A stretch of DNA of 64,000 nucleotides from Acidobacteriota bacterium (GCA_965263035.1 OZ253580.1:1792001-1856000), one strand, 5' to 3'; numbered from the stretch's first letter, positions 10,762-30,436 are shown. Notes: generated by a model from the letters alone, not told the origin. Numbers and translations: made by a program.

Positions 10762-11136
10762 CTACACGTCCACCCGGACGTGCTTCATGGCCTCGTAGGC
10801 CGGAGACGGCTTGCCCTGTACGTGGAGGAAGGGGTATCGGTAGTCCTCCTCTCCCACCCAGCGGGAGTCGCCGGTCATGAAAATCACGGTGTAGGCGCGC
10901 CGGGAATGCGGGCTCCGGTTGGGCTCGCTCCGGTGGTAGGTCAGCCAATGGTGGAATCTCACGCTTCCTTTGCTCAGCTCCACCGGAATCTCACCTCCCA
11001 AATTGCTCAGAGCCTCCTGGGTCAGCTTCCACGTATTCCCGGGCACTTTCGAATGCTCGTGATCGAGCAGGCCCAACTTGTGGCTCTCGGGGATCACGGT
11101 GAGGCTTCCGTTCTCGCGGGTCGCATCCTCCAACGC
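10762..11136 (-). pseudogene. Displaced 3' fragment of the PhyH-family dioxygenase gene
   Basis: ALEDATRENG...YEAMKHVRVDV is nearly identical at protein level to the C-terminus of 29551..30312. The N-terminal half with the HxD motif is missing. Confidence 0.85.
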
Positions 11137-11213
11137 GCAGCTGATGGTGACTGTCACCTGCTTGCTGGTGGTTACCCGGTCGCCTTCTATCATGATCACC
11201 CGCTCCCTTCTTT

Positions 11214-12520: not shown

Positions 12521-12631
12521 TTACCCGTCCACCTGGACGTGCTTCATGGCCTCGTGGGCCGGAGACGGCTTCCCCTGAACGTGCAGGAAGGGGTACCGGT
12601 AGTCCTCCTCCCCCACCCAGCAGAACTCGCC
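12521..12631 (-). pseudogene. Second, shorter displaced 3' fragment of the PhyH gene
   Basis: ~110 bp that match 29551-29661 and 10762-10872 with scattered substitutions. Confidence 0.8.
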
Positions 12632-12779
12632 ATTTTATCAGCGGGGCGCTCGAAGAACCCAACGTCTTCGGGACCCTGGGCCAACTGACCAGGTCGTTTT
12701 GGCGCGCCGTCACTGACAAGTGGGTAGCCAGACCGATTGTCTGGCTCCGAAACCCCGTGCTTGGGGGAAGGTTCATGCT

Positions 12780-15700
12780 TCAACCCAAGATCATTCCGTC
12801 GATGACCGATGCGATCACCGCTGCATCCAACCCCCCGCCCGGCTCGTCCCGAGTTTCGATCAGCGTTCCTTCCAGGCCTCCGCCGTCCTCGTGAGGCCGA
12901 ATTCCGCAGTCCAGGTACTCGGCACGCTTCCGCTCCCATCGGGCTCTGTACCCTTGGTCGTCGAGCATGCCGAGATGCTCCCAATAGAAGGTCACGCCCC
13001 GCGCGTGATCCGCGATCGTGAAATCCGGGTAGCGGGTGCGACCATTGGCCAGCACGAGAGGCTGCTCGTAGGCGTAGTCGATCCCGCGCGCGTAAAGCTT
13101 GTCGGCAATCACCAGCTCGGACTTTGAGCGCACGAGATCACCGCGCTCGGTTCGATGAATGAGCCCTTCCTCGAGGAAGCGCTGCTGGGCGTTGACGGTT
13201 ACTTCGCGCGGCCGCGGATCCGCGAAGAGGTTCGTCATGCGCCGGGCGATCTCCGAGTGCTCGTCGCCTGCATAGCGGCGATACTCGACAAGTGGGCCTT
13301 CGTGCAGGATGACCAGCCGGTCCTGGTGGCGGGTCAGCGCCGTGTACAAGAGCTCGCGGGAGAGCAGCCAGCAGGGGTTGGTGAGTACGACGAAGGTGAC
13401 GCCGAACTCGCTGCCCTGGGTCTTGTGCACCGTCAGGCAGTAGGCCAGCTCGAGCGGGTTGCGGCCTTCGTCTCCGAACTCGCCGGGGTAGAACCGGTAC
13501 TTGGGGCCTAGTTGCCCGGCGAACTCGACCTCGAGCTTCCACGGCATGCCCCTGAACTTCTTCGTCTTGTACTCCCCGACGATGATGCCGATGTCGCCGT
13601 TGGCGAGGTAGGCCTCCCCAGCGGGCTTCGGCCAGACGTCGCGCCCGCGCTGGTTGATGACATTGATGACCTTGTCGCCGTAGAGGAGCATCTGCGGGCC
13701 GACGGGACGCGGCACCTTGCGACCCCAGCCCTCCGCCTCGGCAAGCTCCCGCGCCTCCGCCCGGAACCGCCTTTGGAGCATGCGGTTCAGCGCGTCCACC
13801 CCCACGAGGCCGGCGCGCAGAGGCGAGAGCATCTGCCACGCTTCCGCCCGCGCGGCGGCTCCCGGGTTGTCGCCGAAGCGGTTCCAGAAGAAGGCCCACG
13901 GGATACCCCCGTGACGGGCGCCGCCCAGCGATTCCTCGAAGCCCAGTTCGTCGTCCGGCCCGGCGAGACCGAGCGCCTCGACGAGTTCCGCGACGAGCTT
14001 CTCCTGAAGCTCCTGCGGGTGGTTCCACCGCACGAGCCGGAGGCGTCCGTCTTTTCCTTCCTGTCCCTCGTCCAACACGGCGTCTGCGCCAGGATCGAGC
14101 GGCCGTCCGCTGAAGTGCGATGCCAGGAGCACGTCGGCCCGGGACTCGCCCTGCTGGCGTCGCGGGATCGTGAGCCCGGCATAGCTCGGCCCGTAGCGCG
14201 GAAAGAGCGTCTCGACATTCTCGGGCTCGAGCTCTCGAACGATGTCCACGAACGGGCGACCGGCCCCAATCGGCGGGAGCTGGCGCGGGTCCCCGACGAG
14301 CACAAGCCGCTCGACGTTGCTGAGCGAGTCGATCAGCGCCGCGAGCTGCTCTTCGGTGAGCATCGAGCACTCGTCCACGATCACGGTCCGGTAGTCGCCA
14401 CAGCGAGGCGCCCTGAGCTTGGGAAAGTAGGCGCCGGTCTCCCCGTCGTAACGTTGCTGCCGGATCAGAAACTGCGCCAGCGTCCGGCCGGCACCCCGCC
14501 TGCCGGTCTGCTCTTCCAGGCGCACACGGGCCTTGCCCGTGGGTGCCAGGAGCAGCAACCCCTTCTCGGCGAGACCGGGAAGCGAGCAGAGCATCCGCAG
14601 CAGCGTCGTCTTGCCCGTCCCGGCCGGGCCGATCAGCACGGAGAGCCGCGAGCGGAAGAGCTGCTCGAGCGCCGCCGCCTTCTCGCGCCGCGCGCGCTCC
14701 TCCAGCTCGCGCTCTTCCGGATCCGTAGGCAGCGCCTCATCGATCCCTGCGTCCACGAGCCCACGCCAGTCGAGTTCGGCCACGTGCGGCTTCCCCTTCT
14801 TCCGGCCGAGCACTTCGCGGCGGATGATCGTACGGCACTCGATGAGCCGGTCCACCTGGTAGGCAGGCTCGTCCTGACGGGTTGCCGCGCACGCGACGAC
14901 CGGCGCGAAGCTCTCCTCGCAGGCGTCGAGCACGTTCTCGCCGAGCGGGCACGGCGGCTGGAGCGCTCGCTCCCGCGCCCTGCGGATGACCCAGCTCCGA
15001 GGGAGCAGCGTGTGGCCCTCGGCCGCTGCGTGCTCCAGGAGGTCCGCGACCAGTGCACGTACACGCCGTTCGTCGGCCGGGTCTTCGATGCGGCTCGGCT
15101 CCAACACTGGGAACTGCTCCCGCACTGCCTCGTCCGGGAACAGGCCCCGGTCCACCGCGCCAAAGGCAATCGGGTCGGCGGCGCGCCGGTCGTGCTCAAA
15201 GAGGAGGTAGGGATTGCGCAGCAGCTCGGCGTCGCTAGCCTCGATGCCGGCCTGCGCCCGTGCTGTGGTGTCGTAGAAGCGTAGCGCCTGATCCTCCGAG
15301 ATGGCGCAGCGGCCGAGGAGTTGGAGCAGGGCCCGCCGCTCGTCGGTTAGGCGCTTCCAGCCCTTGCGCAGCCCGTCCGTGAGGAGCTTTGCCACGGGAC
15401 CACCAAGCTTCGCGGGATCATCCATCACGGCGTCCACGAGCGCCCACGGATCGCCGCCGCCCTCGCGCTCGCGCTCGCGCAGCAGTTCGATCTCGTACGC
15501 GAGCAGGCTCCCGTGCTGGAAGCCCCACTCGTAGCCGAACGCCGAAAGCGCCGAGCCGAGGCCGGGGAACGCACCGCGCGCCCTCCACAGGCGGTTGAGC
15601 TGCGTATCGATCCAGGCGAGCACCTCAACCCACGGTCCCTCGATCCGGCCGCGCACCCGGTGCAACGTCGCGGCGCAGGCCACGAGGGAGGCCACGGCGC

Positions 15701-16601
15701 CATCGTGGGTCAGGAGTTCCGAGCCGTAGGAGTAGGCGTCGAAGTGCTCGTCCGGGGCGAAGGCCACGAACTCCTCGGGGTCGACCCCCTCGCGTTCGGC
15801 GAGCGCCAGCGCTTCCTGGTAGGGAAAGAGGAAGCCGTCCGCGAAGCCGGGCCGGACCGAATGGCCCACGTTGCACTCCCAGAGCACGCACCGAAGCGGC
15901 GGGTTCTTGACCTTGTATGCGTATTCGGTGGCCTCGCCGACGGAGAGCACCCGGCCCACGCCGACGATCACGCGCCGGGACTGCTCGGAGAGCGGGGTGC
16001 GCTTGGCATAGAAAAAGCAGAGCGACTCCTCTGGCCGGAGCGCGCCGAAGAAGGTGTCGAGCAGAGCGAGCTGGTTCTCGCGCTCCTGGACCCAGGCCGT
16101 CTCGACCTGCTTTCCGCCGCGGCTGCGGATGTCGGGCTCGCCGTCTGGCACCCAGCGGATCTTCAGGCGCTCGGCGATCCCGATCTCACCGTTCTTTGCG
16201 TTCCCCTCGACCTTCTCGCGAAGCATCCAGCGGAACGGAACGCAGGCAGCAGAGTAGGGCGATTGCACAAAGCGGGTGGGTGCGAAGTGGCCGTGGGTCT
16301 TGGGGTAGAACTCCGTGTACGGGTGGGTCATCGTCCGGGTGAGCGAGAAGGGCGCCATGAACGAGACGCGCTCGCCCACGCAGGGTGGCAGGTCGGCGTG
16401 GTCGAGCTCGTCGAGCCGCTGACCCGCGCAACGCGCCTCCACGTCGTCGCGCCGGCCTTCGCCGATGCGGGGAAGGACGAGGCAACTCGAGTTGTCCAGC
16501 GGCCGGGCACACACCGTCCCGGACCAGCCCCCGTCGTGCCACGGGACGCGGATGGTGACATGGTGGGGCGGAAGGCGGCGGGCGCCGGCGAAGCTTGTCA
16601 T
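12780..16601 (-). CDS. RecD2-like SF1B helicase with long N-terminal region and C-terminal PD-(D/E)XK-like nuclease domain
   Basis: GPAGTGKTT, IVDECSM, LVGDPRQLPPIGAG, AYCLTVHKTQGSEF and RELLYTALTR. The tail reads RSKSE...YPDFTI...WEHLGM. ATG 16601 has a GGAGG RBS and overlaps the RT stop (ATGA). Confidence 0.88.
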   Translation of the reverse strand: MTSFAGARRLPPHHVTIRVPWHDGGWSGTVCARPLDNSSCLVLPRIGEGRRDDVEARCAGQRLDELDHADLPPCVGERVSFMAPFSLTRTMTHPYTEFYPKTHGHFAPTRFVQSPYSAACVPFRWMLREKVEGNAKNGEIGIAERLKIRWVPDGEPDIRSRGGKQVETAWVQERENQLALLDTFFGALRPEESLCFFYAKRTPLSEQSRRVIVGVGRVLSVGEATEYAYKVKNPPLRCVLWECNVGHSVRPGFADGFLFPYQEALALAEREGVDPEEFVAFAPDEHFDAYSYGSELLTHDGAVASLVACAATLHRVRGRIEGPWVEVLAWIDTQLNRLWRARGAFPGLGSALSAFGYEWGFQHGSLLAYEIELLREREREGGGDPWALVDAVMDDPAKLGGPVAKLLTDGLRKGWKRLTDERRALLQLLGRCAISEDQALRFYDTTARAQAGIEASDAELLRNPYLLFEHDRRAADPIAFGAVDRGLFPDEAVREQFPVLEPSRIEDPADERRVRALVADLLEHAAAEGHTLLPRSWVIRRARERALQPPCPLGENVLDACEESFAPVVACAATRQDEPAYQVDRLIECRTIIRREVLGRKKGKPHVAELDWRGLVDAGIDEALPTDPEERELEERARREKAAALEQLFRSRLSVLIGPAGTGKTTLLRMLCSLPGLAEKGLLLLAPTGKARVRLEEQTGRRGAGRTLAQFLIRQQRYDGETGAYFPKLRAPRCGDYRTVIVDECSMLTEEQLAALIDSLSNVERLVLVGDPRQLPPIGAGRPFVDIVRELEPENVETLFPRYGPSYAGLTIPRRQQGESRADVLLASHFSGRPLDPGADAVLDEGQEGKDGRLRLVRWNHPQELQEKLVAELVEALGLAGPDDELGFEESLGGARHGGIPWAFFWNRFGDNPGAAARAEAWQMLSPLRAGLVGVDALNRMLQRRFRAEARELAEAEGWGRKVPRPVGPQMLLYGDKVINVINQRGRDVWPKPAGEAYLANGDIGIIVGEYKTKKFRGMPWKLEVEFAGQLGPKYRFYPGEFGDEGRNPLELAYCLTVHKTQGSEFGVTFVVLTNPCWLLSRELLYTALTRHQDRLVILHEGPLVEYRRYAGDEHSEIARRMTNLFADPRPREVTVNAQQRFLEEGLIHRTERGDLVRSKSELVIADKLYARGIDYAYEQPLVLANGRTRYPDFTIADHARGVTFYWEHLGMLDDQGYRARWERKRAEYLDCGIRPHEDGGGLEGTLIETRDEPGGGLDAAVIASVIDGMILG

Positions 16602-19600
16602 AACCAACCTCCCTGCGCTGCCGTTTTCAGACCTGCGGGGGGATGCTTCCAGCCGTCGGCATTGGCTCCCGAGATGTCGTGGCGCTCCAGGAACCCGCCG
16701 ATGTCGTCGATTTCGAGGAACGTGATCGAGGCCTGCTGTCCGTGGGTGTGGAAGATCTGCCTAATGTGAGCATCGCTCCTCGGCCAGTAGGCGTTGCTGC
16801 CGCCGTACTGCCCGTTGTTGGCGACGACCACGAGTTGGAACATGTGATAGTGCAGCGCCAACGCCATCTGGTCGAACGTCTTAACGTCTTTGTTGAGCGC
16901 CGGGATCGCCAAGATATCTGACTCATCCCTGAGATCCGCAGCGAGGCCGAGATCCGTCGCATCATAGCAGACGGTCGCAGTCAGCCATAAGGGGCGGTCA
17001 CCGTCCGCGTCAGACCACGGATAGCCGATCAACCACTGGCAGGGCCGGAATCCCTGAAGAACGTGCGCCCCACCACCGTTGAACGCTTGCTCATTCGGGG
17101 CGAGGTGAGCCTTACCTTGACGGCGAGTCTTGATCTGCAGCCCGTAGGCGTCCGACCACTCCGGCATGACCCACAGGGCTGAGTTGACGAGCGGTTGCCC
17201 CGCTAGAATCTCTTCGTAGGTCAGCCCGGCGAGGATCATCGCCCTGTGAGCCCGTGCGAAAGGGACCAGATGAGTACGAACGTCCTTCGGATGGACGGCA
17301 AGCTCGGGCAGAATCAGCCAATCGAGCCGCCCTTCGCTCCCCTTGTGCGTCTCTCTCAACGCCAGCATGCGTTCCACGGCTGCGAGCGCTGCCGACAGGT
17401 GATTGCGGTGTCTTCGCCGAATTGCGGACTCGTTGAGTGCTAGGTCTGTGTGCTGCAAGTCACCGGTCGCCGGGATCGCTGTCTGGACCACGCAGGCACG
17501 CAGCGGCCTCGGCGTGTTCGTCGCTGTCGGTCGCCGGACCAGCAGCGGCAGGATCAGTGCGCGGGTAGCGCTACCTCGGCGCTGCTCGAGATCGGCGATC
17601 CTCTGGCCAATCTGCGTCCTCGCCTCTTGGATGCCCTGCTCGACCCAGCCGAACCCATCCGGAGCACGGCACCCCGGCCAGCGCAGGAGGCCCAGGAGGA
17701 GTCCTTCTACCCAGTCCGTGATCGGAAGCCAGTCGTCTCCGAAGGCCGGCTGCCCGCTATACAGGCCGTACAGGCGCTGGTACCAGTGGCTCTCGGCAGG
17801 GCGATAGAAAGACTCAGTCTCTTTCCAATGTCTCCTGCGGACGGGACGCGTGAAATCCGGCTGCCCCGACAGGATGAACCGGAGCAGAAAACCGAGTTGG
17901 AAGCGCCACCCCTCGCCGGCTTCACACCACGCGGGCACCTCGTATGGGGAGCCCGATGCGTCGGCCCGACTCCCCAGGATCCGCAGCGTTTCTACGTCAG
18001 CGACCGCCCGGTCCTCGCCGAGCTTCAGCGTGACCTGGCCTGGGGTGATCACCTCGGGCGGAAGCTTCTGCTGCTCCCACTGTTCGAGGAAAGCCCTCGC
18101 GAAGCGCAGAAGGGAGAGCTCGTTGCGAAGAGAACCGCTCGGGTGCGTATTCAGGACCGCCTTGGCCAGCGTGTCGTGGCCGCCGTCAGCCCCCTCCGGA
18201 GCCCGGCAAAGGTCCTCGCGGATGCGCGCCGGAAGGTCGTTGAAGAGAAGAGTATCCGTCGCGGTGTCGATGATCTCGAGAAGAAACGACGGGTCCCTCT
18301 GAGCGAGCTGCCGCCTCCTTGACGGACTGAGGCCGGGCCGCGTCAACTCAACCGCCCGCGCTCGATCCAAGAACGCACGTCTGGCGAGAACCGCGAGCGT
18401 CGCAAAATCCGAACTCCGGAGGCGGTCTCCGTCACCGCGCAGGAATCGGATCAGCTCCCGGTAATGCCGGGTCTCCGGTACCGTTCCCGTGCGCACGACG
18501 GGCGCCCCGACGGGATCGCAGACGGCGAGGAACAACAGCGCCTGCTGTCGTAGGTACCAAGGAATCGTCGGCCCGGGCAGGGCCACCAGGCGAGCGGCCT
18601 CCCCGCGAAGCTCCTCGCGGTAGGATTCGAGGTCGATCCCCAAGGGGAGCGATTCGGTGTCCGCCACGAGCGCCGTTTCCGTGGCTCCCGCGCGCAAGAC
18701 TTCAGCGAGGCAGTACCAAGCGACTCGCCTCGGCGCCTTTCGCCGCCCCCCCTTTTCCGTGAAAGGGCGGAGCAGTGAGAGAACTTCCCGCAACAACTCC
18801 ACATCCGGCCAGAGATCGAGGCCAATCCGAAGCAGGCGAACGTTCGATGGGTCGTCGATCCACCGTTGAATCAGACCCAGCGCAAACGCCCTCGCATCCT
18901 CGTCCAGCTCGCGCCGTGTACGCGCCACGCGCGGTCGCCCACCGGGCGGGGTATCGCCTCTACCAACCTCAGACTCGTCCGGCGTGTCGTCGTCTTGGAG
19001 CAGCGGCCTGATGGAACGGAACGTGGTTCGATATCGGGCAGCGCCGAATCTGGCGACCGTCTCGTCCCGAACGTCCGGGACCGGGGAAAACCGCCAGCCA
19101 CTGTCGTCCCCCACGCTCAGGGCTTCCTGCGCGCGCATCAGGCCCTGGATGGCATCGAGGATCTCCTCGCCGCCGAGCGCGTCGAATCCCCCCGACACCG
19201 CCGACTGGATGCGGTTCATCTTCGCGCTCTGCCGCACCAACGGTCGTTCGTCGCCCCCTAGCGCTGCGACTTGGCTCTTCTCGGGGGACAGCACGAGGCC
19301 GGTCGCATTCTCTTCCAGAACCTGACTTAGCCATCTCGAGACGGTCTTCTCAAGGTCATTCGACGAGCCATCCGACTTCGGGGCAACCGCAACCAGGATC
19401 CGCAAGTCGTCGACGTACCGGCACGAGTCCGCCACCCGGATTCCGGGGGCGATCTCCGTCCCGATCGCCACGCGCAGCACCTCGTCGAACGAAAGGAGCA
19501 CGACGTTCGCGAAGAAGCCGGAGGCGACGAGTCCCTGTGGCAATGCCACCCGCGTGAAGTCGTCCAACTCCGCCTGCTCTGCGTACATCTTGACATTTTT

Positions 19601-20356
19601 TTCGTCACGCGGATGCCAGCCCCAATTGAGCACGGACGCCGCCAGAGAAAAAAACGCCGGGTCATCGCCGTCGCGGCGGATCCGGTCGAGCGCTCCGGCA
19701 AGCAGATCCGGGCGCACGCGGTCGTAGAATTGCCGAATGTCCGCATGGACGACGTAGACGCGCTTTCCATCGGCTGCCGGAATCGACTCGGCCGCGACTT
19801 CCGGCCGGGAGAGGAACGCGCGGTAGTCCTGGTAGTAGGCGCGGTAGAGCTTGGCGGATCCCCACCGATGGCGCAGTTCGCCATATATCGCGTCGCAGAA
19901 CAGCCGGTTGCCATAGGAGACCACCTGCCTTCGCGACTCCTGATCACGTACCGGCTGTCGCGGATCCCCTTGCAGCGTCTCGACACGGTCGGCGAGACAG
20001 AGCATCAGCGCCGTCGCCACCACCTGGTCGGCCAAGCTGACGTGAGCGAGCGGTCGAAGCCGTGCCGAGCGCGCCCCCTTGACGGGCTCCCACACGCCTT
20101 CCTGCACTCGCCAGCGCTGGCTCTTGGGCGCCGGAACGATGCGTAGAGGATCGTTCTGCCAGCTCTCCAAAGACTGCAGGCGTTCGCCGAGTTCGCTGAG
20201 AAACGCCGGCAGGTTCACGGCCGCGCGGTCGAGAGCAAGCGTGTCGGAGAACCAGTTGTGGTAGCGGATGTAGGACGCGGTCTTCTTCCAGGCCTGAACG
20301 AGGACGTACTCCTCGCGGAGCAACTCCAAGCGCGGTTTGAGCTGCTCCTGAACCAT
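16598..20356 (-). CDS. Reverse transcriptase-nitrilase fusion (DRT1/UG1-like defence-associated RT)
   Basis: RT motifs RLRPL, HADIRQFYD, LPQGLVASGFFAN and RYVDD. C-terminal carbon-nitrogen hydrolase triad E (LPELAV), K (QGKAH) and C (VCYD). 1252 aa. Confidence 0.9.
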   Translation of the reverse strand: MVQEQLKPRLELLREEYVLVQAWKKTASYIRYHNWFSDTLALDRAAVNLPAFLSELGERLQSLESWQNDPLRIVPAPKSQRWRVQEGVWEPVKGARSARLRPLAHVSLADQVVATALMLCLADRVETLQGDPRQPVRDQESRRQVVSYGNRLFCDAIYGELRHRWGSAKLYRAYYQDYRAFLSRPEVAAESIPAADGKRVYVVHADIRQFYDRVRPDLLAGALDRIRRDGDDPAFFSLAASVLNWGWHPRDEKNVKMYAEQAELDDFTRVALPQGLVASGFFANVVLLSFDEVLRVAIGTEIAPGIRVADSCRYVDDLRILVAVAPKSDGSSNDLEKTVSRWLSQVLEENATGLVLSPEKSQVAALGGDERPLVRQSAKMNRIQSAVSGGFDALGGEEILDAIQGLMRAQEALSVGDDSGWRFSPVPDVRDETVARFGAARYRTTFRSIRPLLQDDDTPDESEVGRGDTPPGGRPRVARTRRELDEDARAFALGLIQRWIDDPSNVRLLRIGLDLWPDVELLREVLSLLRPFTEKGGRRKAPRRVAWYCLAEVLRAGATETALVADTESLPLGIDLESYREELRGEAARLVALPGPTIPWYLRQQALLFLAVCDPVGAPVVRTGTVPETRHYRELIRFLRGDGDRLRSSDFATLAVLARRAFLDRARAVELTRPGLSPSRRRQLAQRDPSFLLEIIDTATDTLLFNDLPARIREDLCRAPEGADGGHDTLAKAVLNTHPSGSLRNELSLLRFARAFLEQWEQQKLPPEVITPGQVTLKLGEDRAVADVETLRILGSRADASGSPYEVPAWCEAGEGWRFQLGFLLRFILSGQPDFTRPVRRRHWKETESFYRPAESHWYQRLYGLYSGQPAFGDDWLPITDWVEGLLLGLLRWPGCRAPDGFGWVEQGIQEARTQIGQRIADLEQRRGSATRALILPLLVRRPTATNTPRPLRACVVQTAIPATGDLQHTDLALNESAIRRRHRNHLSAALAAVERMLALRETHKGSEGRLDWLILPELAVHPKDVRTHLVPFARAHRAMILAGLTYEEILAGQPLVNSALWVMPEWSDAYGLQIKTRRQGKAHLAPNEQAFNGGGAHVLQGFRPCQWLIGYPWSDADGDRPLWLTATVCYDATDLGLAADLRDESDILAIPALNKDVKTFDQMALALHYHMFQLVVVANNGQYGGSNAYWPRSDAHIRQIFHTHGQQASITFLEIDDIGGFLERHDISGANADGWKHPPAGLKTAAQGGWL

Positions 20357-21675
20357 ACCTCAGCCCCCCAGCACCTCGACCAGTTCCGCGATCACCTGCA
20401 ACTGGCCTTCGTCCGCGCTGGTGAGCACGATCGGCTCGAAGTCCGGGTTGACGGGGTTGAGGGTGATCTCGACGTGACGCCAGGAGTCTCCCTCCTTCGC
20501 CTTCTTGCTCTTGTAGCGCTTGACCGTGTAGCGCTGTCCGGTCTCCGGGTCGGTGGCTTCACGAAGCTGGACGAGGACGATCTTGCCCTGGCGCGTACCC
20601 TCGACAGGACCTCGAAAGAGGCACCAGGCACCGTCGCGAATCGCGGGCTCCATGGACTTGCCGACGACCTGGGCGACGAACATGCCCTTTCGCAGACGAT
20701 GGCGGGACTTGAGAGCGACCCACTCGAAGTCGTCGTCTTCGATGTGCTGCGGATCGCTGAAGGTGCCGGCGGCCACCCTAAGCGGGATGAGCGGCACGCA
20801 GGTGACGTAACGGTCCTCGGGTGCGGGCCCGACCGTAGGCGGCCGAAACGGGACCACCTTCGCCGTCCCCTCTGATGCCGCATCCGCCTCCGACACGCCC
20901 TGGAACGCGTCGGGCCAGCCGCCATGGGCTTCGATGACCTCGTCGATCTCGGACATGATGCGGACGGTCTCATTCAGGGCGACGACGATCTTCTGGTAGT
21001 GGGCGATGTCTTCATCCGAGAGCGTGCGGCCCTTCCGGTCCTTGAGCCACTTGTGGCAGACCTGGTAGCCGCCGATTTGGAAATCCCAGACCTCCCCGGG
21101 CACACCCCTGAAACCCATCGTGCCGGGCTTCGTCGCGTGGTGCCCCTCGCGCGCAATGGTCTTGCCCGCGTCGATCCACACGGTGCCGTCCGACCAGCCC
21201 GCGCGTCCGACTTCTGGGAGCTTTGGGCCGGTGTATGTCGTGATGGGCTTACCGAGTTCCGGAGACTCGAGCAGGTGGAGGGCCAGCACGTCATGGCCGA
21301 TCTCTGCCAGCCCTCGGAAAAGGTCGACGCTTCCGGGCAGAGGTACGCGGGGGAAGTCGAACTTGAGCTGGGCCTCATAGCGGCTCCGATAGCCGGGGCT
21401 GTGGAACACCGTGTAGATGTAGGCGAAGACGTCCTCGGGGCCGAAGGTCTTCCAGAGATCGCCCCGGCCGTCGCTGACGAATCGCAGTTCGGTGGCGGCC
21501 GCAATCTGCTCGACGAACCCCGAGTCCAGATTCGGAGTGCGGCCGTCCTTGCCCTTTGTCCAGCGGTTGAATAGCGAATCGTCGGCCCTGCCGACTCCGG
21601 GATAGAGGTAGAGCGGAAAGAGTGAGTTGACGTCGTAGGCCGAGCAGGTCTTGTGCGCAATAATGCTCGATGTCG

Positions 21676-22764
21676 CTAGTGTGGTGTCCTGGAAATACGA
21701 GTAGATAATCGTGCTAGCTTGTCCAGGATGGATTGGGCTGTGGCGGCCCACACGAAGGGTTTCGCCTCTTGGTTGTATCGATGGGTGAATTCCTCAATCG
21801 TCTTCACCAAGTGTCTCACGTTGCGGAACGAGGTGCGCTTGATCGCTCGCTGTGTGATCAAACCGAACCAGCGCTCCACTTGGTTGAGCCAGGAGGCGTA
21901 GGTGGGGGTGAAGTGTAAGTGGTAGCGTGGCCGCTTGGCAATCCAGGCCCGGACCCGTGGATGCTTGTGCGTGGCATAGTTGTCGACGACCAAGTGGAGG
22001 TCCAGATCGGGCGGCACTTCCCGGTCGATCAACCTCAGAAAGGCCAGGAAGTCCTGGTGGCGGTGGCGCTTCTTGCATTGAGCGATCACGCGACCCGTGG
22101 CGGCATCCAGGGCCGCGAAAAGGGTGGTGGTGCCGTGGCGGATGTAATCGTGCGTATATCCTTGAACGTACCCGAGACCCAGGGGCAGGGCCCGTTGGGT
22201 CCGGTCCAGGGCCTGGATTTGAGACTTCTCGTCGACGCACAGCACCATGGCGTGGTCGGGGGGATGGAGGTAAAGTCCCACGATATCTCGGACCTTCTCG
22301 ATGAAGAAGGGGTCGTTGGAGAGCTTGAAGGTCTGGGCCAGATGAGGCTTGATGCCAAAAAGCGAGAACCAGCGCTGCACGGTGGTCTTGGAGACGCCCT
22401 CGGCGGCGCCCATCAAGCGCACGCTCCAGTTCTCGGCGTTGGCCGGCTTCTGCTGCAGAGCGCGGCTGATCACCTGGGCGACCTTCTCGTCGTCGTAGCT
22501 GCGGGGACGACCGGGACGAAGCTCGTCATGCAAGCCCTGAACGCCGAGTTCGAGGAAGCGTCGACGCCACTTGCCGACGGCTTGGGGCGAAGCCCCGACC
22601 CGTTCGGCCACTGCCCGGTTGGTGAGGCCCTCGGCACTGGCCAGGATCATGCGGGCTCGCAGGACCAAGCCGTGAGGCAGACTGGTGGAACGGGCGACTC
22701 CCTGGAGTTGATGTCGCTGCTCGTCGCTGAGTACCAAGGGGGGAAGTTTGCGTCCGCGGGGCAT
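21676..22764 (-). CDS. IS630-family transposase
   Basis: HTH region with RPGRP, then DDE motifs [19 protein letters not shown] and WLNQVERWF. The stop codon TAG uses the target TA. Confidence 0.95.
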
Positions 22765-22828
22765 AGGCAGTCTCCTTTCTGAATGAGGAACCGCCTATTA
22801 TTATACACGAACTAACGGGACACTACAC
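21679..22828 (-). mobile_element. IS630-family insertion sequence (1150 bp)
   Basis: Terminal IRs GTGTGGTGTCC / GGACACTACAC. TA is duplicated at 21677-78 and 22829-30 within a CTAG target. Confidence 0.93.
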
Positions 22829-25511
22829 TAGCGCGCCCCACTTATCTCTCGTCTGCCTCGTTGTGATTAGGCCGACGTTCTCCCCCGCGAGCATGTGCCG
22901 CATAATCTGCTTTACAGTTCGCCACACCAGCGAATCGTGATAGAAAATCAAGCGTTGGTCGAAGGGGCGATAGAGAACCGGCTTGATGTGTTCTCCCAAC
23001 TCCCTTTCACCTCCAATCAGTTTTCTCGCGTTGGGTATGTTCCACCCCTTCTTCAGCGGAATCCCCAGTCGGCGGCACAGTTCCTCATCAGAGTCTTTCG
23101 AATCGCGAAACTCACGTGCCCGCTCGAGCAATGGTGCTTCAGCGAAGTCAATCACTACATGGTCCCGTGCCGTCGTCATTCCAACACCATTCACCGGCAT
23201 CACTTCGGTGATTATCCAGCCCTGTTCGTATTCGGCTTTCAGTTCGGTGTCTTGCGGCACGAACAGGTAGAATGGCCGCTGTGGTCGCAGCACCATCCAT
23301 TCCGTGCTACCAGCATCGGTCGAGAGGAGCGTTTCGTACTTGCTCTCCCGCAGCTCCCACAGGTCGGCATGATGTAACTTGGCTGTGCTCCTCTTCCCCG
23401 CCTTATTTATAAAGAGTCCGAGCGCCACCCCCTGCTGGATGTCGAAGACGTTTTCATCTTTGCCTCCGTCCGGCGCGCGTTCCTGCTTCTTCGAGTTTCC
23501 GTGAAGGTCGAGCAGGAAGAGCTGATCGAACGTCGCAAGCAGTGCCCGCCGCACTCCTCGGAAAGTCGGGCTGTCAACATAGCTGTGGTTCGTGATGAAG
23601 CCATGAATGCCGGCACCAGCCCGCTCAAGTAGCCATTGTGAAAATCGCGTGAAGCGGACGTAGAGATCGTTCAGCCACTTCGGGTTGCGCTCATTCAGCG
23701 GCTCACCGTCTACCTCGAAGTAGCTCAACGTGCTTCGGCCACTCTGGAGTTCCTGACCGCGCATGAGCGCTGCGATCCAGTCCCCACCGCGACCTGCTTC
23801 GCCAAGGTACGGCGGATTCCCGATCACCACCGTGAACCGTTGATTCCGCTTGATCTCGTTGACCGCTTGGGCCTCGTGCGCCAGGGCCGGCAGGAAATCC
23901 AGGGTGAGCTGCCTACTTCCCGCCGGCTCCAGCGCGTTCGTCAGGTACACACGCGCCCGCTCGTCGCTCCCGAAGCGGTAGCCGGTCTCGTAGAGCTTGA
24001 GGCCGATCTTGAGGTGCGCGATGGCGTAGGGCGCCATTAAGAACTCGTATCCGTGCAGGCGCAACAGGAGGTGTTCCGGGACGTAGTGGTTCCAGAGCGC
24101 CTCGATCTTTTTCTCGCCGTGGCCCTGAGCCTTCCACTCCTCGACCATCGTCTTGTGGATAAGGTCGATTACCTCGACGAGGAACGTGCCGGTGCCGGTG
24201 GCGGGGTCGAGGATCTGGACGAAAGCCTGGTCGGGCGGCGTGCCGTTGGGGATCTCGAGATCTTCGTGCCGTTTCGCCATCTCGCCCCAGGTCGTTGTGT
24301 CGGCGAGGCCGTCAGTGAGGCCGAAATCGCTCCGCAAGAGCTGGTCCACCGAGCGCACGATGTAGGAGACCACCGGGCGTGGAGTGTAGAAGACGCCCCG
24401 GCTCACCTTCTGCTTCTTGTCGTAGGCGGCGAGGAAGTGCTCGTAGAAGTGGATGACCGGGTCTTCCCGGGGGTTCCGGTCGCCGAAGTCGAGGACGACG
24501 GCCTCCATATTAGCCTGGTCGAGTAGCTCCACCACCTCGGAGACGCCCAGCTCGTCGAAGTCGATGCCTAGCCCACCGGCCTTCCCGCGGCGCCCTCCCG
24601 CGTGAAGGAAGGTCTCCATCAACTCCTTCAGAAACGGGTTCGTCCGCATGTAGGCGGCGAGGTCGTCGGCTGTGCGCCGCGCCGGGTCGGTGATGCGCGC
24701 GGACAGCAGCCCGTATGCGAGGGTCTGGGCGTACATATCGGCGAAACCGTCCTCGTCCAGGTCGTGGACGAGCGCGGTCTGGAAAGCCTTCATAAGCTTG
24801 GTGAGCGGCCCGGACTCGGTCTCGATGGGGAGCGCCGTCCGGATGCGGTCGCGGATGGCGCGGGCGAGCTTCGCCAAGCGCTCCGAGAGCTGCTTTGAGG
24901 TGCTGATGACCTCGCGGTGGCGCAGTGTGAAGGCGGCGCGCCAGCGCTCGCGCCAAGCGTCGGGGTCGCCCTCGTCGTCGGGCCAGGCGAGGTGCGTGGT
25001 CAGCTCGCTAGCGACGGCGTCAAGGTGGAGCGGCGTGTCGAAGTTGTCCCAGCCGAGCACCTTGAGGGTGGGCAGGTCGTGGCCGTCCCGGGGCTTCGAG
25101 AAGTGCGCGAAGACAATGCGCCGCTCCTCGCCCTCACCGTAGTTGGAGACGAAGAGCAGGTCGTCGGCGGCCCAGGCCTGGCGCTCGGACTTGTTGGCCG
25201 AGGCGCGCTCCTTGAGCGCCACCTGGCCGAGGATGCGGCGCAGCGCCACCACGGGCAGGCGCTTCGGCTCGAACTTGACGAAGAAGATGCCCCAGGGCTG
25301 GCCCGTCGCGAGTGGGCGCAGGCGCTTGATCTCCTGGATCTTGGCCGCGTTCTTCGCGTCGATCCCGAGCTCCTCGGGGGTATAGTCGAAGGTCATTTCT
25401 TCGAAGTCGTCCGAGTCGATCGGCCAGCCGAGCTCGTCGCGGAGGTAGGCGACGAGTTGGTCGAAACGGCGGATGCATGCGAGGCGCTCCCGGTGGTTGG
25501 TCGGCATCGGT

Positions 25512-28500
25512 TCAGCCCTCGTTCAGCTCCATCCAGCAGCGAAGCCGCGGCTTGACGCCGACGGGGGCGTCCACGCGCTTCAGGTAGCTGTTCTTGATGT
25601 GCTTCTCGATCCGCTTGCGGATGTCGAGGAGCGTCTTCTCCTCCATGGTGCAGCGCCGGGGCGTCTCGGGCTTCGAGCGGATGCTCGCGACGATCTCGCC
25701 CGGCTCCTCGAGGATGGTTTCGCGGTCGAGGTCGTAGAAGTACCAGCGGGTGGTGCCGGCCTCCTCGGTGAACTCGTTCTTCTCCTTGTCGAGGGCGGGG
25801 AGCGCGTAGCAGAAGAAGACACCGCGCATGCCCTTCGCCGGGCGCTTGCGGCCGCTGAAGATCGCGCCGGGGAAGCGAGCGAGGCGCGCCTCCAGCTCGG
25901 GGTCGGCCTGGAGCAGCGCCTGGTACTCGAGATGCATGTCCTCCACGGCCGTGCGCGTGCCCTCGTAGGCGTGGTGAAACTCCTTCAGCGCCTCGTAATC
26001 GTCCTCCGGGGTGAGGAGCTTCTTGCCCTCGATGCCGAGGGTCTTGGAGATCAGGAGCGTCTTCTGCGTGACCTTCGTGTAGAGCGAGAGGATCTCGTTC
26101 AGCTCCTGAGGCGGGAGAAAGTTCCAGAACCAGACCCTGCCGCGCGAGGCGGCCGCCTCGGGATGGTCGGCGACGAGCCGCTTCTCGATTGCGGGATTCA
26201 TGCGGCGGTCCACCCGGCCGATGCGCTGCATGAGGCGCACCGGGTTCCAGTGGATGTCGTAATTGATCATCCGCGAGGCGTCCTGGAGGTTGAGACCCTC
26301 GGAGAGGACATCGGTGGAGATCAGGACGCGGGTCTCCTCGCTGCCCCGCTCGGCGAGCTCCGGGGACGAGCGGCCATTGTAGTAGGGCGCGAAGCGCTGG
26401 ATGACCTCTGAACGGTTCTTCTTCGTGGCACTGTCCACCTGCTCGACGCCCTCGATACCGGCCTCGTCCAGTTGACGCTTGAGGTAGCGGGCAGTGTCGG
26501 CGAACTCGGTGAAGATCAGAATCTTCTGGTCGGCCAGCGCCTTTGACTTGAGCAGGCGGATGAGCTTCTGGAGCTTGTCGTCGTGCTTCGGCTCGAACTT
26601 CCGGGCCTCGGCCAGGAACCGAACGATCTGGTCGAGGTCGAGGAAGGTCTCGGCCATCATCTCCTTGACGTCGTACGCGGCACGGTCGAGGCGCTCGACC
26701 GCCTCGAGCATCTCCTGGGGGACGACGTCATCATCGTCTGCCTCCTTGCCTTCCTCGCCCCAGAGCTCGAACTGGCGCTGGACGGCGCAGCCCAGGATGT
26801 CGGCGTTCTGCGCTTTCCACCTCTTGAGGCGCTTCTTCTCGGCGTCGCTCTCGCTGTGGACCTCGATGAAGGCCAGCAGCTTCTTGAGCAGGCGGTCGCA
26901 AGAGAGTTCGAAGGCGGCGACGGAACTCTCGAAGCGCTTGAGAAAGTTGGTCCGGATGAGGCCGATCACCTGTCTCTGGCGGTTCTCCTCGAACGGGTCG
27001 ATGTCCTTGTCCGGCCCCCTGTACCAAAACAGGGGGTAGTACATCGGGAGCGTGAAGAGCGGGCTCTGCTTGGCGAAAGCATTCTCGAACAGCTCGAGCA
27101 TCCGCCCGTAGGTCTTGCGGATCGAGTACGCTGCTACCTGAGGGTCCCTCCGGTCGGGAAAGGCAGCTGCTTTGCCGTACTCCCGAATCTGGCTCTCGCG
27201 GGCGTAAGCGCGGCTCCGCTGGACGACGAGCTCGCGGAAGAATGCGTCGGTGAAGAGGATCTCCTGGGCTTCGATCATGTGCTCCGCAGCATCCGCCACG
27301 TCCTGTCCCAAACGGCTGCGAAGCATCCTTTCCATCTGGCTGAAGTGCGCCCTCAGGTTGTTCACGCCGATCGTGCGCGCGAAGTAGGACTCGTCACGAC
27401 GCGTGAAGAGCTCGGTCATGTGGCGGAAGTCGCTCAGACGGTTGTTGATGGGGGTGGCCGTCAGCATGAACACGGTCTTGGGGCGTTCCGCGTTGTCGAG
27501 TAGCTCGAACAGGCGGTAGTAGCGCGACGGTTCGATTCCCCTGTCGGGATCACGCCGGCGGCCCGGATTGCGGAAGTGGTGTGCCTCGTCGATGACAACG
27601 ATGTCGGCGAGTTCCGCAATGCGCTGGAAACGCTGCGGGAAGTCCCCCTTTCGTCCGAGGTCGGTGTGGCTGAAGACGGCCAGGTTGCTGAAGTCCCCGC
27701 CACCGCCGACGCCGCCGATGTGCGGAAGCCACTGACGCAGGTGGGGCTCCCATACCCCCTCCTTGGCCCCCTTCGGTGCGAACAGCGCAACACGCTTGCC
27801 CTCGTGAAGGATGAGCCGCTCGATCAGCATCAGACCGACGAAGGTCTTGCCAAGACCCACGCCGTCACAGAGGAACGCACCGCGGTGCTGCCGGGCGATC
27901 TTCATGAGCGCCCAATACGCCTCCTTCTGATATCGATCGAGGTGCGGGAACATGCGCGACCGTGTCTCGTCCCACTCGGTCGCGGTCAGCTCGTGCCCCC
28001 GGAAGAACTGCTGCAGGGCCTTCGCGTAGACGTCGAATGGCGAATACGGGTGCGTATGGCGCGAGATCGTCTCGATGACGGCCTCGGTAACCCCGCTCGC
28101 TTCGTTCCAGTGCGTCTCGAACCACTCCTGGAGCTGCGCGACTTCGCGTGAGCTCTGGATCTGGACGTTCAACTCGATGTTCTTCGTGAGACCCGGACGC
28201 GTGAAGTTGCTGGAGCCCACCAGCGCCTGGGAACCCACTACCTCAAGCTTTGCGTGGGTGATGTAGGCCTTGGCGTGGAATTTGGCCTTGTCGTAGACAC
28301 GGCATTCGATCTTCCCGGAGCGGAGCGCGTCGAGGATCGCAGAGACCCCGTGCAGGAAGGGGTTCGGCTCCTTGTCCTCCTCGATGCTTTCGTCGAGCCT
28401 ATCGAGCGCTTGCGCCCGAACCGCTTCGAGAATGGCCTTTCGAGTCCGATGGGTGGTCTCCGCCCCCATCAGGATCCGGATCTTGTCGAGCCCCTGCCAT

Positions 28501-28661
28501 CTGCCGTCGAGGGTGAGCAGAGCGCCGATCTCGAAGTATCCGGTCGCGATGTCGAACGCCTTCGCGATGCTGGACCACTCCTCCAAGTACCGGAGCCCGG
28601 TCCAGCCGGAGACACTGTTGTCGACGATAAAGAGCTCGTGGCCCTTGGAGTCAGCGGTCAT
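25512..28661 (-). CDS. PLD-nuclease domain plus SNF2-type (SF2) helicase
   Basis: PLD motif FHAKAYI...VGSSNFT...NIELN. Helicase motifs DGVGLGKT, DEAH, LTATP, SEGLNLQ and QRIGRVDR. Start set at ATG 28661 with a GGGAG RBS. Confidence 0.9.
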   Translation of the reverse strand: MTADSKGHELFIVDNSVSGWTGLRYLEEWSSIAKAFDIATGYFEIGALLTLDGRWQGLDKIRILMGAETTHRTRKAILEAVRAQALDRLDESIEEDKEPNPFLHGVSAILDALRSGKIECRVYDKAKFHAKAYITHAKLEVVGSQALVGSSNFTRPGLTKNIELNVQIQSSREVAQLQEWFETHWNEASGVTEAVIETISRHTHPYSPFDVYAKALQQFFRGHELTATEWDETRSRMFPHLDRYQKEAYWALMKIARQHRGAFLCDGVGLGKTFVGLMLIERLILHEGKRVALFAPKGAKEGVWEPHLRQWLPHIGGVGGGGDFSNLAVFSHTDLGRKGDFPQRFQRIAELADIVVIDEAHHFRNPGRRRDPDRGIEPSRYYRLFELLDNAERPKTVFMLTATPINNRLSDFRHMTELFTRRDESYFARTIGVNNLRAHFSQMERMLRSRLGQDVADAAEHMIEAQEILFTDAFFRELVVQRSRAYARESQIREYGKAAAFPDRRDPQVAAYSIRKTYGRMLELFENAFAKQSPLFTLPMYYPLFWYRGPDKDIDPFEENRQRQVIGLIRTNFLKRFESSVAAFELSCDRLLKKLLAFIEVHSESDAEKKRLKRWKAQNADILGCAVQRQFELWGEEGKEADDDDVVPQEMLEAVERLDRAAYDVKEMMAETFLDLDQIVRFLAEARKFEPKHDDKLQKLIRLLKSKALADQKILIFTEFADTARYLKRQLDEAGIEGVEQVDSATKKNRSEVIQRFAPYYNGRSSPELAERGSEETRVLISTDVLSEGLNLQDASRMINYDIHWNPVRLMQRIGRVDRRMNPAIEKRLVADHPEAAASRGRVWFWNFLPPQELNEILSLYTKVTQKTLLISKTLGIEGKKLLTPEDDYEALKEFHHAYEGTRTAVEDMHLEYQALLQADPELEARLARFPGAIFSGRKRPAKGMRGVFFCYALPALDKEKNEFTEEAGTTRWYFYDLDRETILEEPGEIVASIRSKPETPRRCTMEEKTLLDIRKRIEKHIKNSYLKRVDAPVGVKPRLRCWMELNEG

Positions 28662-29033
28662 GATGCTCCCTGCCGGTCCGCAAAGCGCATTGCGACCATC
28701 TGCGTGCCAGCAGCGTCCTTCTTGCCCTTCAGACCCACACCGGCACGTTCGGGATCTTGCTTGATACGGACACAATTACCGGGATCGACAATCACGGCGA
28801 CATTCCGAATCAAGGTCAGTCGGTCCTCCAACGGGTTAAAGTCTCTCGTCGTTTTGTCGCCCATAAAGCAGAGTACTGTGGCTTGAAAGTTTTCACCCAG
28901 AAATTCGCAAGCAGTTGTTAAATAGGGACTTAGGAGGTATTCTCAAGCCCCGATTTTATCATAGTCATTAGGTAGTCTATCGGTACCATACAATAGATAA
29001 CAAAAGACTTACACAAAACCGAGGGCCTGAACA

Positions 29034-29366
29034 ATGGGCCGAAAACGCGAACATCAGCTTCCGCTCTCCGGGCTCTGACCCGATCACCAACTCGCCCAGG
29101 AGCTGAAAGTCGTTTCCAGGATCTTGGAGGAATATCCCTCGGTCCTGGATCCGGTCTTACACGATCTGTGTGACTCCGTTCGCTCTGGCCAGGGCGCTCC
29201 GGGTCTGTCCGCGGAGCAGGTGCCGCACTCAGCCATCCTCAAGAACTGGCATCAGCTTTCCTACACCAAAGTGGCTTTCCACTCGAGCGACTCCCAGAGT
29301 TTTCGTTGCTTCGCCCGCCTAGCCTTCGGCTGCTCCCCAAGTGCTTCCTGTCTGTCGGAGAACATC
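29034..29366 (+). pseudogene. Degenerate IS transposase N-terminus (ISNCY/IS5-like)
   Basis: MGRKREHQLPLSGL*PDHQLAQEL...GAPGLSAEQV...LSY...DSQSFRCFAR, with an internal TGA and truncation. An AT-rich IS-end-like leader lies at ~28876-29030. Confidence 0.6.
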
Positions 29367-29379
29367 CCCTACGATCGGG

Positions 29380-29509
29380 GGGGGCTGTAGGCGAGGCGCA
29401 TCTCTTGTATGGAGGGCTCGTCGGCGGGGCGGTCGGGGGCGGAATTATCGGCTATCAGTTGGGAAAGAGCCGGGACCGGGAAACCACCATCATCACGATT
29501 GTCGACTGA
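29380..29509 (+). pseudogene. 3' remnant of a third glycine-zipper membrane-protein paralog
   Basis: GGAVGGGIIGYQLGKSRDRETTIITIVD* matches the C-terminus of 5935..6510 (GHKLGKRKDRETTIIKIVD*). Confidence 0.75.
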
Positions 29510-29550
29510 CTCACCGGAATTTTTTCCGGCGCAAAGCGTGGACTCGAGGA

Positions 29551-30312
29551 CTACACGTCCACCCGGACATGTTTCATGGCCTCGTAGGCCGGAGACGCCT
29601 TTCCCTGAAGGTGCAGGAAGGGGTACCGGTAGTCCTCCTCCCCCACCCAACGGGATTCGCCGGTCATGAAGATCACGGTGTAGGCGCGCCGAGAGCGCGG
29701 GCTCCGGTTGGGCTCGCTCCGGTGATAGGTCAGGCAATGGTGGAACCCCACGCTTCCCTTGGTCAGCTCCACCGGAATCTCACCCCCCAGACGGCTCAGA
29801 GCCTCCTGGGTCAGCTTCCAGGTATTCCCGGGCACATCCGTATGCTCGTGATCGAGCAGGCCCACCTTGTGGCTCCCGGGGATCACCGTCAGACATCCGT
29901 TCTCGCGGGTCGCGTCTTCCAACGCGATCCAGGCCGTCAGCATCCGGTAGGGCTCGAAACTCCAGTAGTACATGTCCTGGTGGGGCGGGACCACGCCCCC
30001 TTCCAGCGCCGGCTTGGCAAAGAGTCCGTCCGCGTAGATGTCCAGGTCGGGCCCGAGGATCTGCTCGACGACGGCAGACAATTTGGGATGGGTGGCCACG
30101 GCGCGAAAAACCGGGTCGCGGTGGAGCAGCCCGAAGGCGTTCCGGAGCGCGGAATGATTGGTGGGCTCCCACTTGAGGTCTCCTTGGGGGTAAGGGATAT
30201 CCCGCCTTTCCAGGGCGTCCACCCGGGCCATGAGTTCGTCCATCTCCGCAGGAGTGAAGACGTCCTCCACGATGATATATCCGTTCTCGTCAAAGCAGCG
30301 CTTGAGGTCCAT
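29551..30312 (-). CDS. Phytanoyl-CoA dioxygenase (PhyH) family Fe(II)/2OG dioxygenase
   Basis: FDENGYII, HQD facial motif, WIALEDATRENGCL.VIPGSH, distal H in TYHRS and R in RRAY. Confidence 0.9.
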   Translation of the reverse strand: MDLKRCFDENGYIIVEDVFTPAEMDELMARVDALERRDIPYPQGDLKWEPTNHSALRNAFGLLHRDPVFRAVATHPKLSAVVEQILGPDLDIYADGLFAKPALEGGVVPPHQDMYYWSFEPYRMLTAWIALEDATRENGCLTVIPGSHKVGLLDHEHTDVPGNTWKLTQEALSRLGGEIPVELTKGSVGFHHCLTYHRSEPNRSPRSRRAYTVIFMTGESRWVGEEDYRYPFLHLQGKASPAYEAMKHVRVDV

Positions 30313-30436
30313 GGTTTCTCCCTTTCTCGACCCTCTCGCCCGGTGAGGCACAACAATATAGACGCAGCTCTCATGCGGAGCAAAGCCGCGCTTGAACCTC
30401 GCGGGAAATTCGGCGCCGCCGGAAACGGCGCCGCGG

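Follow-up and report, generated by a model that had tools for sequence, protein, structure and literature searches.

A mobile four-gene cassette joining a restriction-modification-like pair to a DRT1 reverse transcriptase and PDC-S68 probably stacks three anti-phage modules

We describe a cassette of four large, tightly packed genes within a 64,000-nt stretch of an Acidobacteriota bacterium genome (GCA_965263035.1, OZ253580.1:1792001-1856000), hereafter the window, whose coordinates are used throughout. All four genes lie on the minus strand, in the order PLD-SNF2 helicase (HEL), N6-adenine methyltransferase (MTase), reverse transcriptase (RT)-nitrilase and RecD-like helicase-nuclease (Table 1). 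With a probability of roughly 0.55, we read this locus as a horizontally mobile cassette, predicted to be co-transcribed, in which three anti-phage modules, each capable of functioning by itself, are stacked: the HEL-MTase pair, the RT-nitrilase (a DRT1 enzyme) and the RecD-like protein (the PADLOC candidate PDC-S68). The latter two would be riders of the kind embedded in methylation-based defence operons, and the locus thus an instance of published "embedding". The modules are regarded as autonomous because each occurs alone or with other partners, because their decay is independent, and because DRT1 alone protects (PMC13275509). Other loci and genomes are cited below by L and G numbers.

Composition of the cassette

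Four nucleotides (25508-25511) separate the HEL stop from the MTase start and three (20357-20359) the MTase stop from the RT start, while the RT stop is overlapped by the RecD-like ATG at 16601, forming ATGA. A preliminary description of this DNA had reported the four co-oriented genes, the two gaps and the overlap, all of which we recovered, and its domain calls were right. All four proteins retain intact catalytic motifs. An Rfam scan of positions 10000-31000 returned nothing at E <= 0.1, and a promoter and terminator scan gave no more predictions than shuffled controls. A search of sequencing runs yielded only fragmentary contigs of relatives 90-99% similar, including two RNA-labelled libraries that possibly hold DNA, and a low cover over 22883-23996 was given no weight.

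HEL consists of a single-HKD PLD nuclease domain (PLDc_2, 8.6e-13, residues 60-185) followed by a SNF2-type helicase (Helicase_C 1.2e-19, ResIII and SNF2-rel_dom in Pfam), with recognisable HxK, GSxN, GxGKT and DEAH motifs. Its best PADLOC model is C3a139 'HKD+Snf2' (7.6e-58), and it falls far under the NCBIfam cut-offs for DrmD (138.9 vs 610 bits) and for phospholipD_antiphage. The 5' part of the MTase matches N6_Mtase, Eco57I and Type_ISP_C (1.7e-16) in Pfam and REase_MTase_IIG (PDLC03610, 4.4e-159) in PADLOC; its 3' part matches Type_ISP_C (1e-51) and, above the Pfam cut-off, Peptidase_S24 (9.4e-10). Among solved structures, the MTase resembles DrdV (1.9e-08) and LlaGI (4.6e-05). From these family resemblances, the MTase, through its Type ISP-like target-recognition domain, would find its site and methylate adenine, and the PLD-SNF2 protein would be a translocating nuclease directed against unmethylated DNA.

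In this genome the MTase is one gene split by an element bearing all the IS630-family traits looked for: a DDE_3 transposase, terminal inverted repeats (30 nt) and duplication of the TA target (22830-22829 and 21678-21677). Excision of the element together with one TA restores a single MTase frame of about 1,330 amino acids (aa). The genome holds four full-length copies of this insertion sequence (IS) at 100% identity, this one included, plus one interrupted copy; the insertion into the MTase is therefore recent. The restriction arm is probably dead here through the split, with the RT and PDC-S68 still intact: since the specificity domain is divided, methylation and targeting should both fail. 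The stop of the transposase open reading frame (ORF) at 21676-21678 is a TAG made of the duplicated target TA and the next MTase base, and this stop codon thus lies outside the element. Cassettes elsewhere have also been struck by ISs: L011 has DDE_Tnp_1 elements in its MTase and RT (7497-8681 and 10929-12095), and in L063 an IS630-like element lies within the RT (13214-14290). Damage of one kind or another affects about half of the four-gene copies. In L034, a YhcG/DUF1016 PD-(D/E)xK nuclease gene (4936-6066) sits between HEL and MTase, a further embedded gene in the same operon type.

The RT-nitrilase matches the PADLOC model Drt1a (PDLC03745) over its full length with 1,243 bits, RTasNitrilase at 6e-57 and, by sequence, the solved DRT1 structure PDB 9YFD at 7.7e-118. 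Its RT domain is RVT_1 (Pfam), and its YVDD (D317/D318) aligns with the catalytic YVDD of 9YFD; a second stretch matching 9YFD, residues 820-1221, represents the nitrilase part. Across 50 RTs, RYVDD, the invariant serine of SGGFD and the nitrilase Glu/Lys/Cys motifs (PELxVHP, RRQGK, CYDATD) are at least 90% conserved. This serine, Ser388, is invariant in the 16 RTs displayed and stands two positions off the column aligned to the priming S402, an alignment that is uncertain because the loop is disordered in 9YFD.

The preliminary description had classed this gene as a DRT1/UG1 RT-nitrilase lacking the small membrane partner, and the Drt1a and 9YFD matches confirm the assignment, DRT1 being a class 3 UG/Abi RT. 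No Drt1b-type membrane gene lies at either junction of the RT, since the junctions leave no space for one, and a 108-aa ORF 3' of PDC-S68 has neither a hydrophobic segment nor a PADLOC match. The absence is not the unusual trait it was taken for: about 18% of drt1 genes are accompanied by drt1b and the single gene gives robust immunity (PMC13275509), and a membrane-protein cluster adjoins 33 of 175 UG1 members (Mestre et al. 2022, PMC9226505). In the other RT clade, small ORFs that follow the RT were considered as Drt1b candidates; they lack both a PADLOC match and a hydrophobic segment and are probably not genes. The terms 'SNF2' and 'RecD' do not occur in the accessible text of Mestre et al. 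2022. DRT1 makes protein-primed, A-rich single-stranded DNA (ssDNA) adducts that keep nitrilase filaments dormant, and its activation requires T4 Dda, a 5' to 3' ssDNA helicase (PMC13275509). By analogy with this published homologue, the second module would make short protein-primed A-rich ssDNA adducts and form dormant filaments, its nitrilase killing the infected cell once phage factors such as the Dda helicase appear.

The preliminary description did not know the four-gene combination as a named system; its RecD-like member already bears a name, PADLOC candidate PDC-S68 (PDLC05065; 1,522 bits, residues 14-1272 on model positions 5-1218 of 1,221). The core of this protein matches AAA_30 (3.9e-26) and UvrD_C_2 in Pfam, with recognisable GPAGTGKT and DECSM motifs, and its relatives RecD2 (3e-23), RecD (2.6e-19) and T4 Dda (1.6e-07) identify it as an SF1B helicase. 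The C-terminal domain shows a restriction-endonuclease-like fold with the conserved acidic residues of PD-(D/E)xK or Vsr-like nucleases, and has no sequence match in Pfam or the PDB. The N-terminal region has no Pfam match; its best PDB sequence match, ExoU at E 0.026, is taken as chance, ESM Atlas returned only unnamed clusters, and Foldseek gave nothing at E <= 0.001. As a weak lead, this region may be a PUA/YTH-like reader of modified bases, which would make PDC-S68 a Type IV-like enzyme. The third module would then be an SF1B helicase with a PD-(D/E)xK-type nuclease, perhaps directed at modified DNA.

Recurrence of the gene order in other genomes

A search with the RT in one genome per species returned 63 loci, whose neighbours were scored by tblastn (E <= 1e-10). 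The RT is at least 57% identical to that of the window in 40 loci, 35 of which have both flanks readable. In nine of these 35, the RT has the MTase as its immediate upstream neighbour and PDC-S68 as its immediate downstream neighbour. Eight were called by script (L001, L003, L004, L010, L011, L026, L034 and L063, with PDC-S68 truncated in L001 and L063); the ninth is L036, whose adjacency the script missed because the C-terminus of its MTase differs. The MTase alone accompanies the RT in two loci (L009, L020), PDC-S68 alone in six (L002, L005, L012, L021, L027, L028), and neither in 18, and none of the 23 loci with RT identity below 57% has either partner. By their labels, the carriers belong to Binatia, Acidobacteriota, Alpha- and Gammaproteobacteria, Nitrospirota and other groups. 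In a tree of 50 full-length RT proteins (FastTree, midpoint-rooted for drawing only), all the linked RTs belong to a single clade of 28 rows.

IS elements and integrases are frequent around these loci, a setting that would suit chance adjacency in a defence hotspot with no lasting linkage. Such an origin is nevertheless hardly credible, since order, spacing and DNA boundaries recur across phyla. PDC-S68 stands directly 3' of the RT in 15 of the 35 loci, as compared with full-length PDC-S68 in 2 of 401 genomes of the window's phylum. Chance falls far short of explaining the arrangement. The preliminary description had suggested a look at whether neighbours and order recur in unrelated genomes; they do, with the tight spacing (9/35 loci, several phyla), and this rules out a chance hotspot.

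The modules occur and decay apart

The two genomes of the phylum with full-length PDC-S68 are the present one and G381, and the gene follows an RT in both. A metagenome search made blind to the RT with a PDC-S68 alignment recovered 18 full-length relatives (26-74% identity); among the 16 with at least 1 kb of upstream sequence, a UG1 RT adjoins none. These relatives are found inside Type I restriction-modification (R-M) operons (hsdM-hsdS-...-S68-hsdR in L102 and L103), inside BREX (BrxC-PglX-S68-BrxHI-PglZ in L107, BrxD-S68 in L104), inside DISARM (L110) and beside SNF2 helicases (L096, L099). In L106, a relative lies 4 kb past a HEL-MTase pair of the window's own family.

The HEL-MTase pair is equally found on its own. 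HEL at least 55% identical to that of the window occurs in six genomes of the phylum sample, with the RT in the window's genome only; G325 has HEL (88%) and MTase and nothing more, two contigs of a viral collection hold HEL-MTase only, and in G689 PDC-M28B and PDC-M28C come after the pair. By locus, HEL and MTase occur without RT or PDC-S68 in L185 (HEL 88% identical), L199 and L200. At L231 (6667-9785), a HEL-MTase(S24) pair of the window's family has PDC-M28B and PDC-M28C behind it where the window has RT and PDC-S68, which shows that the 3' slot of this operon type can hold different cargo. Altogether, what follows the MTase may be DRT1 with PDC-S68, PDC-M28B/C, a QatC-like gene set or nothing, with other cargo in L231, L200 and L106. 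The only part of the cassette that lacks DNA homology between carriers is the target-recognition region of the MTase, as expected of a working specificity determinant. This variable region and the variable cargo behind the MTase fit a stack of autonomous layers.

Within the window's clade, RTs have other hosts as well: one follows a DrmMI-like MTase with a 4-nt overlap (L030), one BrxC-PD-T4-4-PglX (L058) and one HmaB...HmaC (L017). Furthermore, the partners decay independently, an intact RT standing beside a truncated PDC-S68 in L001, L002 and L028, whereas in L011 (IS) and L012 (two ORFs) it is the RT that is broken and PDC-S68 that is intact.

The preliminary description had proposed one obligately integrated four-gene system, with the RT-nitrilase guarding the R-M-like module or feeding DNA to the RecD-nuclease. 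In support of this model, the four-gene order with tight junctions is found in nine other loci of several phyla, the island in this genome consists of exactly these genes, and an S24 domain sits at the MTase-RT junction. We nonetheless consider it very unlikely, since none of the pairwise links holds throughout: HEL-MTase, MTase-RT (L009, L020) and RT-PDC-S68 each occur on their own, and so does the RT. The slot behind the MTase holds other cargo, as described above, and S24 domains 44-57% identical to that of the window end HsdR, Schlafen-like and DruE-like proteins with no RT nearby. Much of what the preliminary description itself had named as telling against it has been found, namely HEL and MTase without the RT (L185, L199, L200, L231), PDC-S68 relatives with no RT beside them (0/16) and RTs with other neighbours. 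From its idea of a 'layered' system, the layers survive as independent modules, while the wiring of the RT between them does not. Under the stacked-module reading, the tight junctions would provide co-expression and not mechanistic dependence.

Evidence for a closer link between DRT1 and PDC-S68

A number of observations weigh against a stack of independent modules. The genes have long been strongly associated: the four-gene order is found on the deepest branches of the 28-row RT clade (L036, L026, L034), down to 58% RT identity. The MTase-RT junction is a 3-nt gap or a 4-nt overlap in 10 loci, and the RT-PDC-S68 junction measures -4 to +20 nt in 11 of 12. DNA homology of the cassette between carriers starts 9 nt before the HEL ATG (28670) and stops 0-78 nt past the PDC-S68 stop. 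In addition, RT and PDC-S68 also move as a discrete pair; in seven pair-only loci, the 5' edges of the pair cluster at 16-86 nt upstream of the RT ATG. In the PDC-S68 tree, the RT-linked genes form two clades with RT-free relatives between them and the linked RTs are one lineage; an approximately unbiased (AU) test rejects a single RT-linked PDC-S68 clade (p = 0.00016, for a group chosen after the tree was seen). There were therefore at least two occasions on which the RT-PDC-S68 pairing arose or was renewed. T4 Dda, the published requirement for triggering DRT1, is an SF1B helicase like PDC-S68. Finally, the S24 extension is present on 9 of 11 RT-adjacent MTases and on none of four RT-free copies (L185, L106, L199, L200); the two RT-adjacent copies without it are L036, which has another extension, and L020, which is frameshifted, and the MTase of L231 is an exception in having S24 without an RT.

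It is possible, if on balance doubtful, that RT and PDC-S68 constitute a true two-gene DRT1 variant, in which the ssDNA adducts of DRT1 serve as substrate for the helicase-nuclease or load it. PDC-S68 would then be a host counterpart of phage Dda or an extra effector, and HEL and MTase a separate system merely hosting the pair. Loci with the pair and without HEL and MTase (L005, L021, L027 and L190, and with decay L002, L012 and L028) argue for such a variant, as do the boundary of the pair within 16-86 nt of the RT start, the conserved ATGA or short gap at its junction, the two PDC-S68 lineages carried by one RT lineage, and the membership of Dda (PMC13275509) and PDC-S68 in the same helicase class, SF1B. 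Against it stand the many RT-free contexts of PDC-S68 relatives (RT in 0/16), the survival of either gene after loss of the other, and the autonomy of DRT1 in experiments. A conserved interface between the two proteins is unlikely, as an RT is missing beside most PDC-S68 relatives. Moreover, L012 is a visible deletion derivative of the four-gene form, in which the sequence upstream of the RT is fused to the first 506 nt of HEL, and pair-only loci may thus be remnants.

A more specific form of coupling, suggested by analogy with Dda and in our view rather unlikely, is that PDC-S68 might act as a built-in relay. It would engage the covalent ssDNA adducts of dormant DRT1 filaments and, when its N-terminal sensor, possibly the PUA/YTH-like reader, detects foreign DNA, would release the nitrilase, which would extend DRT1 to phages without Dda. 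If that were true, the repeated RT-PDC-S68 pairing would reflect selection for coupling. We favour the stack of autonomous modules over both forms of coupling.

The S24 domain of the methyltransferase

The motifs GKSMEP and YTVKRY and an upstream AAG are kept in nine S24-bearing MTase relatives; they are putatively the Ser-Lys dyad and the Ala-Gly self-cleavage site of LexA-like proteins. PF00717 is present in 97 of the 120 best protein clusters matching the C-terminal half of the MTase. Domains 44-57% identical to the window's S24 also form the C-terminus of several unrelated enzymes (Table 1). A role as an RT-specific adaptor was considered and is ruled out, as S24 ends HsdR, Schlafen-like and DruE-like proteins with no RT nearby and the S24-bearing MTase of L231 is followed by PDC-M28B/C. 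The distribution suggests that S24 may be a general, undescribed add-on of DNA-tracking defence enzymes, and a literature search found no description of such an add-on on these enzymes. A reasonable guess from the sequence motifs is that it serves as a damage-responsive switch on restriction-type enzymes.

The island and its surroundings

In this genome the cassette, together with its leader, forms a strain-specific island flanked by direct repeats. In the same-genus genomes G170 and G148, position 12631 is joined directly to about 29552, leaving an empty site with a single copy of the 110-bp core; because two same-genus genomes have this empty site, the inserted 16.9 kb is identified as cassette plus leader. 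Neither PDC-S68 nor HEL had a match in the four same-genus genomes searched.

The repeated element of the leader (28888-29366) is repeated six more times in the genome (77-81% identity) and also has copies in same-genus genomes; no inverted repeats were found around it. Beyond the DUF4143 gene, a 378-bp stretch (10760-11137) duplicates the 3' part of the PhyH dioxygenase gene (29549-29926) at 90% identity and yields a truncated PhyH ORF of 151 aa; same-genus genomes are single-copy. The DUF4143 AAA ATPase gene directly after the island (11214-12383) matches PADLOC PDC-S01 (1.8e-91) and is conserved backbone (93-95% identity in G170 and G148), outside the cassette. Stretches of 50-90 nt (10613-10703 and 8560-8648) match dozens of same-genus sites at 75-100% identity and look like a family of small interspersed repeats.

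Table 1. Positions of the cassette genes, their parts and the surrounding features in the window, and of S24-ended proteins at other loci
Feature	Position	Strand	Description
HEL (PLD-SNF2 helicase)	28661-25512	-	1,049 aa
MTase (N6-adenine)	25507-20360	-	One gene, IS630-family element inside
MTase 5' part	22829..25507	-	N-terminal region of no assigned role, N6-adenine MTase domain (DPATGTG, NPPY), start of target-recognition domain
IS630-family insertion sequence	21679..22828	-	1,150 bp, splits the MTase gene
MTase 3' part	20360..21676	-	Rest of Type_ISP_C target-recognition domain and C-terminal LexA-like S24 domain (~20381-20794)
RT-nitrilase (DRT1/UG1)	20356-16598	-	Intact, 1,252 aa
RecD-like helicase-nuclease (PDC-S68)	16607 (TTG) or 16601 (ATG) to 12780	-	Intact, ~1,275 aa
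PDC-S68 parts	12780..16607	-	N-terminal 620-aa region; SF1B RecD-like core ~13305-14690; C-terminal PD-(D/E)xK-type nuclease domain 12783-13292
Strain-specific island	12632..29551	-	16.9 kb, four-gene cassette and 881-bp leader
Leader upstream of HEL	28671..29551	-	881 bp, AT-rich, with 479-bp repeated element at 28888-29366
Left direct repeat	12522..12631	.	110 bp, copy of PhyH gene 3' end, 89% identical to 29552-29661
Right direct repeat	29552..29661	.	110 bp, within 3' end of PhyH gene (29551-30351)
S24-ended Type I HsdR subunits	L232:9962-13591, L233:1779-5531, L234:2070-5573, L238:2364-5477		
S24-ended Schlafen-like helicases	L236:2078-4507, L237:2057-4459, L239:2087-4528		
S24-ended DruE-like helicase	L235:9998-16033		2,011 aa

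Relation to known systems and significance

The RT agrees with known DRT1 in its full-length Drt1a match, its match to 9YFD, the YVDD, the nitrilase Glu/Lys/Cys, a conserved Ser that, in an uncertain alignment, falls in the loop of the priming Ser402 and, as in most DRT1 loci, the lack of Drt1b. It differs in that its subclade (28 of the 50 tree rows) is habitually found 3' in MTase-based operons, just upstream of PDC-S68, a context with no mention in the accessible sections of Mestre 2022 or Neville 2026. PDC-S68, a single-gene candidate in PADLOC, is matched over its full length and has relatives embedded in Type I R-M, BREX and DISARM operons, the difference being that it directly follows a DRT1 gene here and in 14 other loci. 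A literature search found no description of PDC-S68 behind DRT1 or of the four-gene combination, the per-candidate tables of Payne et al. lying outside that search.

The HEL-MTase pair shares with Type ISP (LlaGI) and Type IIL/IIG (DrdV, MmeI) enzymes the succession of an N6-adenine MTase and a Type_ISP_C target-recognition domain, and the presence of a helicase and a nuclease. In Type ISP enzymes, however, Mrr-type nuclease, helicase, MTase and target recognition reside on a single polypeptide, whereas here the functions are divided between two. In contrast to all three types, the nuclease of the window is PLD-type and not Mrr or PD-ExK, the motor is SNF2-like, and the MTase carries a C-terminal LexA-like S24 domain. 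With DISARM and Hma the pair has in common an SNF2 helicase, a PLD domain and a large adenine MTase, as well as partial matches to DrmD, DrmC and HmaA; yet the island is without DrmA, DrmB and HmaC, the MTase has no HmaB match, and HEL reaches 138.9 against the DrmD cut-off of 610.

Hma, BREX, DISARM and Type I R-M operons often have other defence genes embedded in them, a pattern from which 145 PDC candidates, not experimentally tested, were derived (Payne et al. 2024, 10.1101/2024.01.29.577857). The present locus resembles this 'guilt by embedding' in that autonomous defence genes sit within, or are attached to, methylation-based multi-gene systems and share their orientation. It differs in its host, a HEL-MTase pair outside the four host types screened by Payne et al., and in its cargo, a fixed DRT1 and PDC-S68 pair at the 3' end, the whole set moving as a unit with sharp DNA boundaries.

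The locus extends the embedding pattern to a new type of host operon, a split Type ISP-like PLD-SNF2 helicase and MTase, with a fixed cargo and as a 14.7-kb unit that moves between phyla. Should the modules be independent, which we think most likely, the cassette would offer a well-documented case of something already known, and no new system. As read from the gene overlap, DRT1 is translationally coupled to a Dda-class helicase-nuclease in this natural cassette, which has been transferred widely, and the question arises of whether PDC-S68 alters the trigger or the phage range of DRT1.

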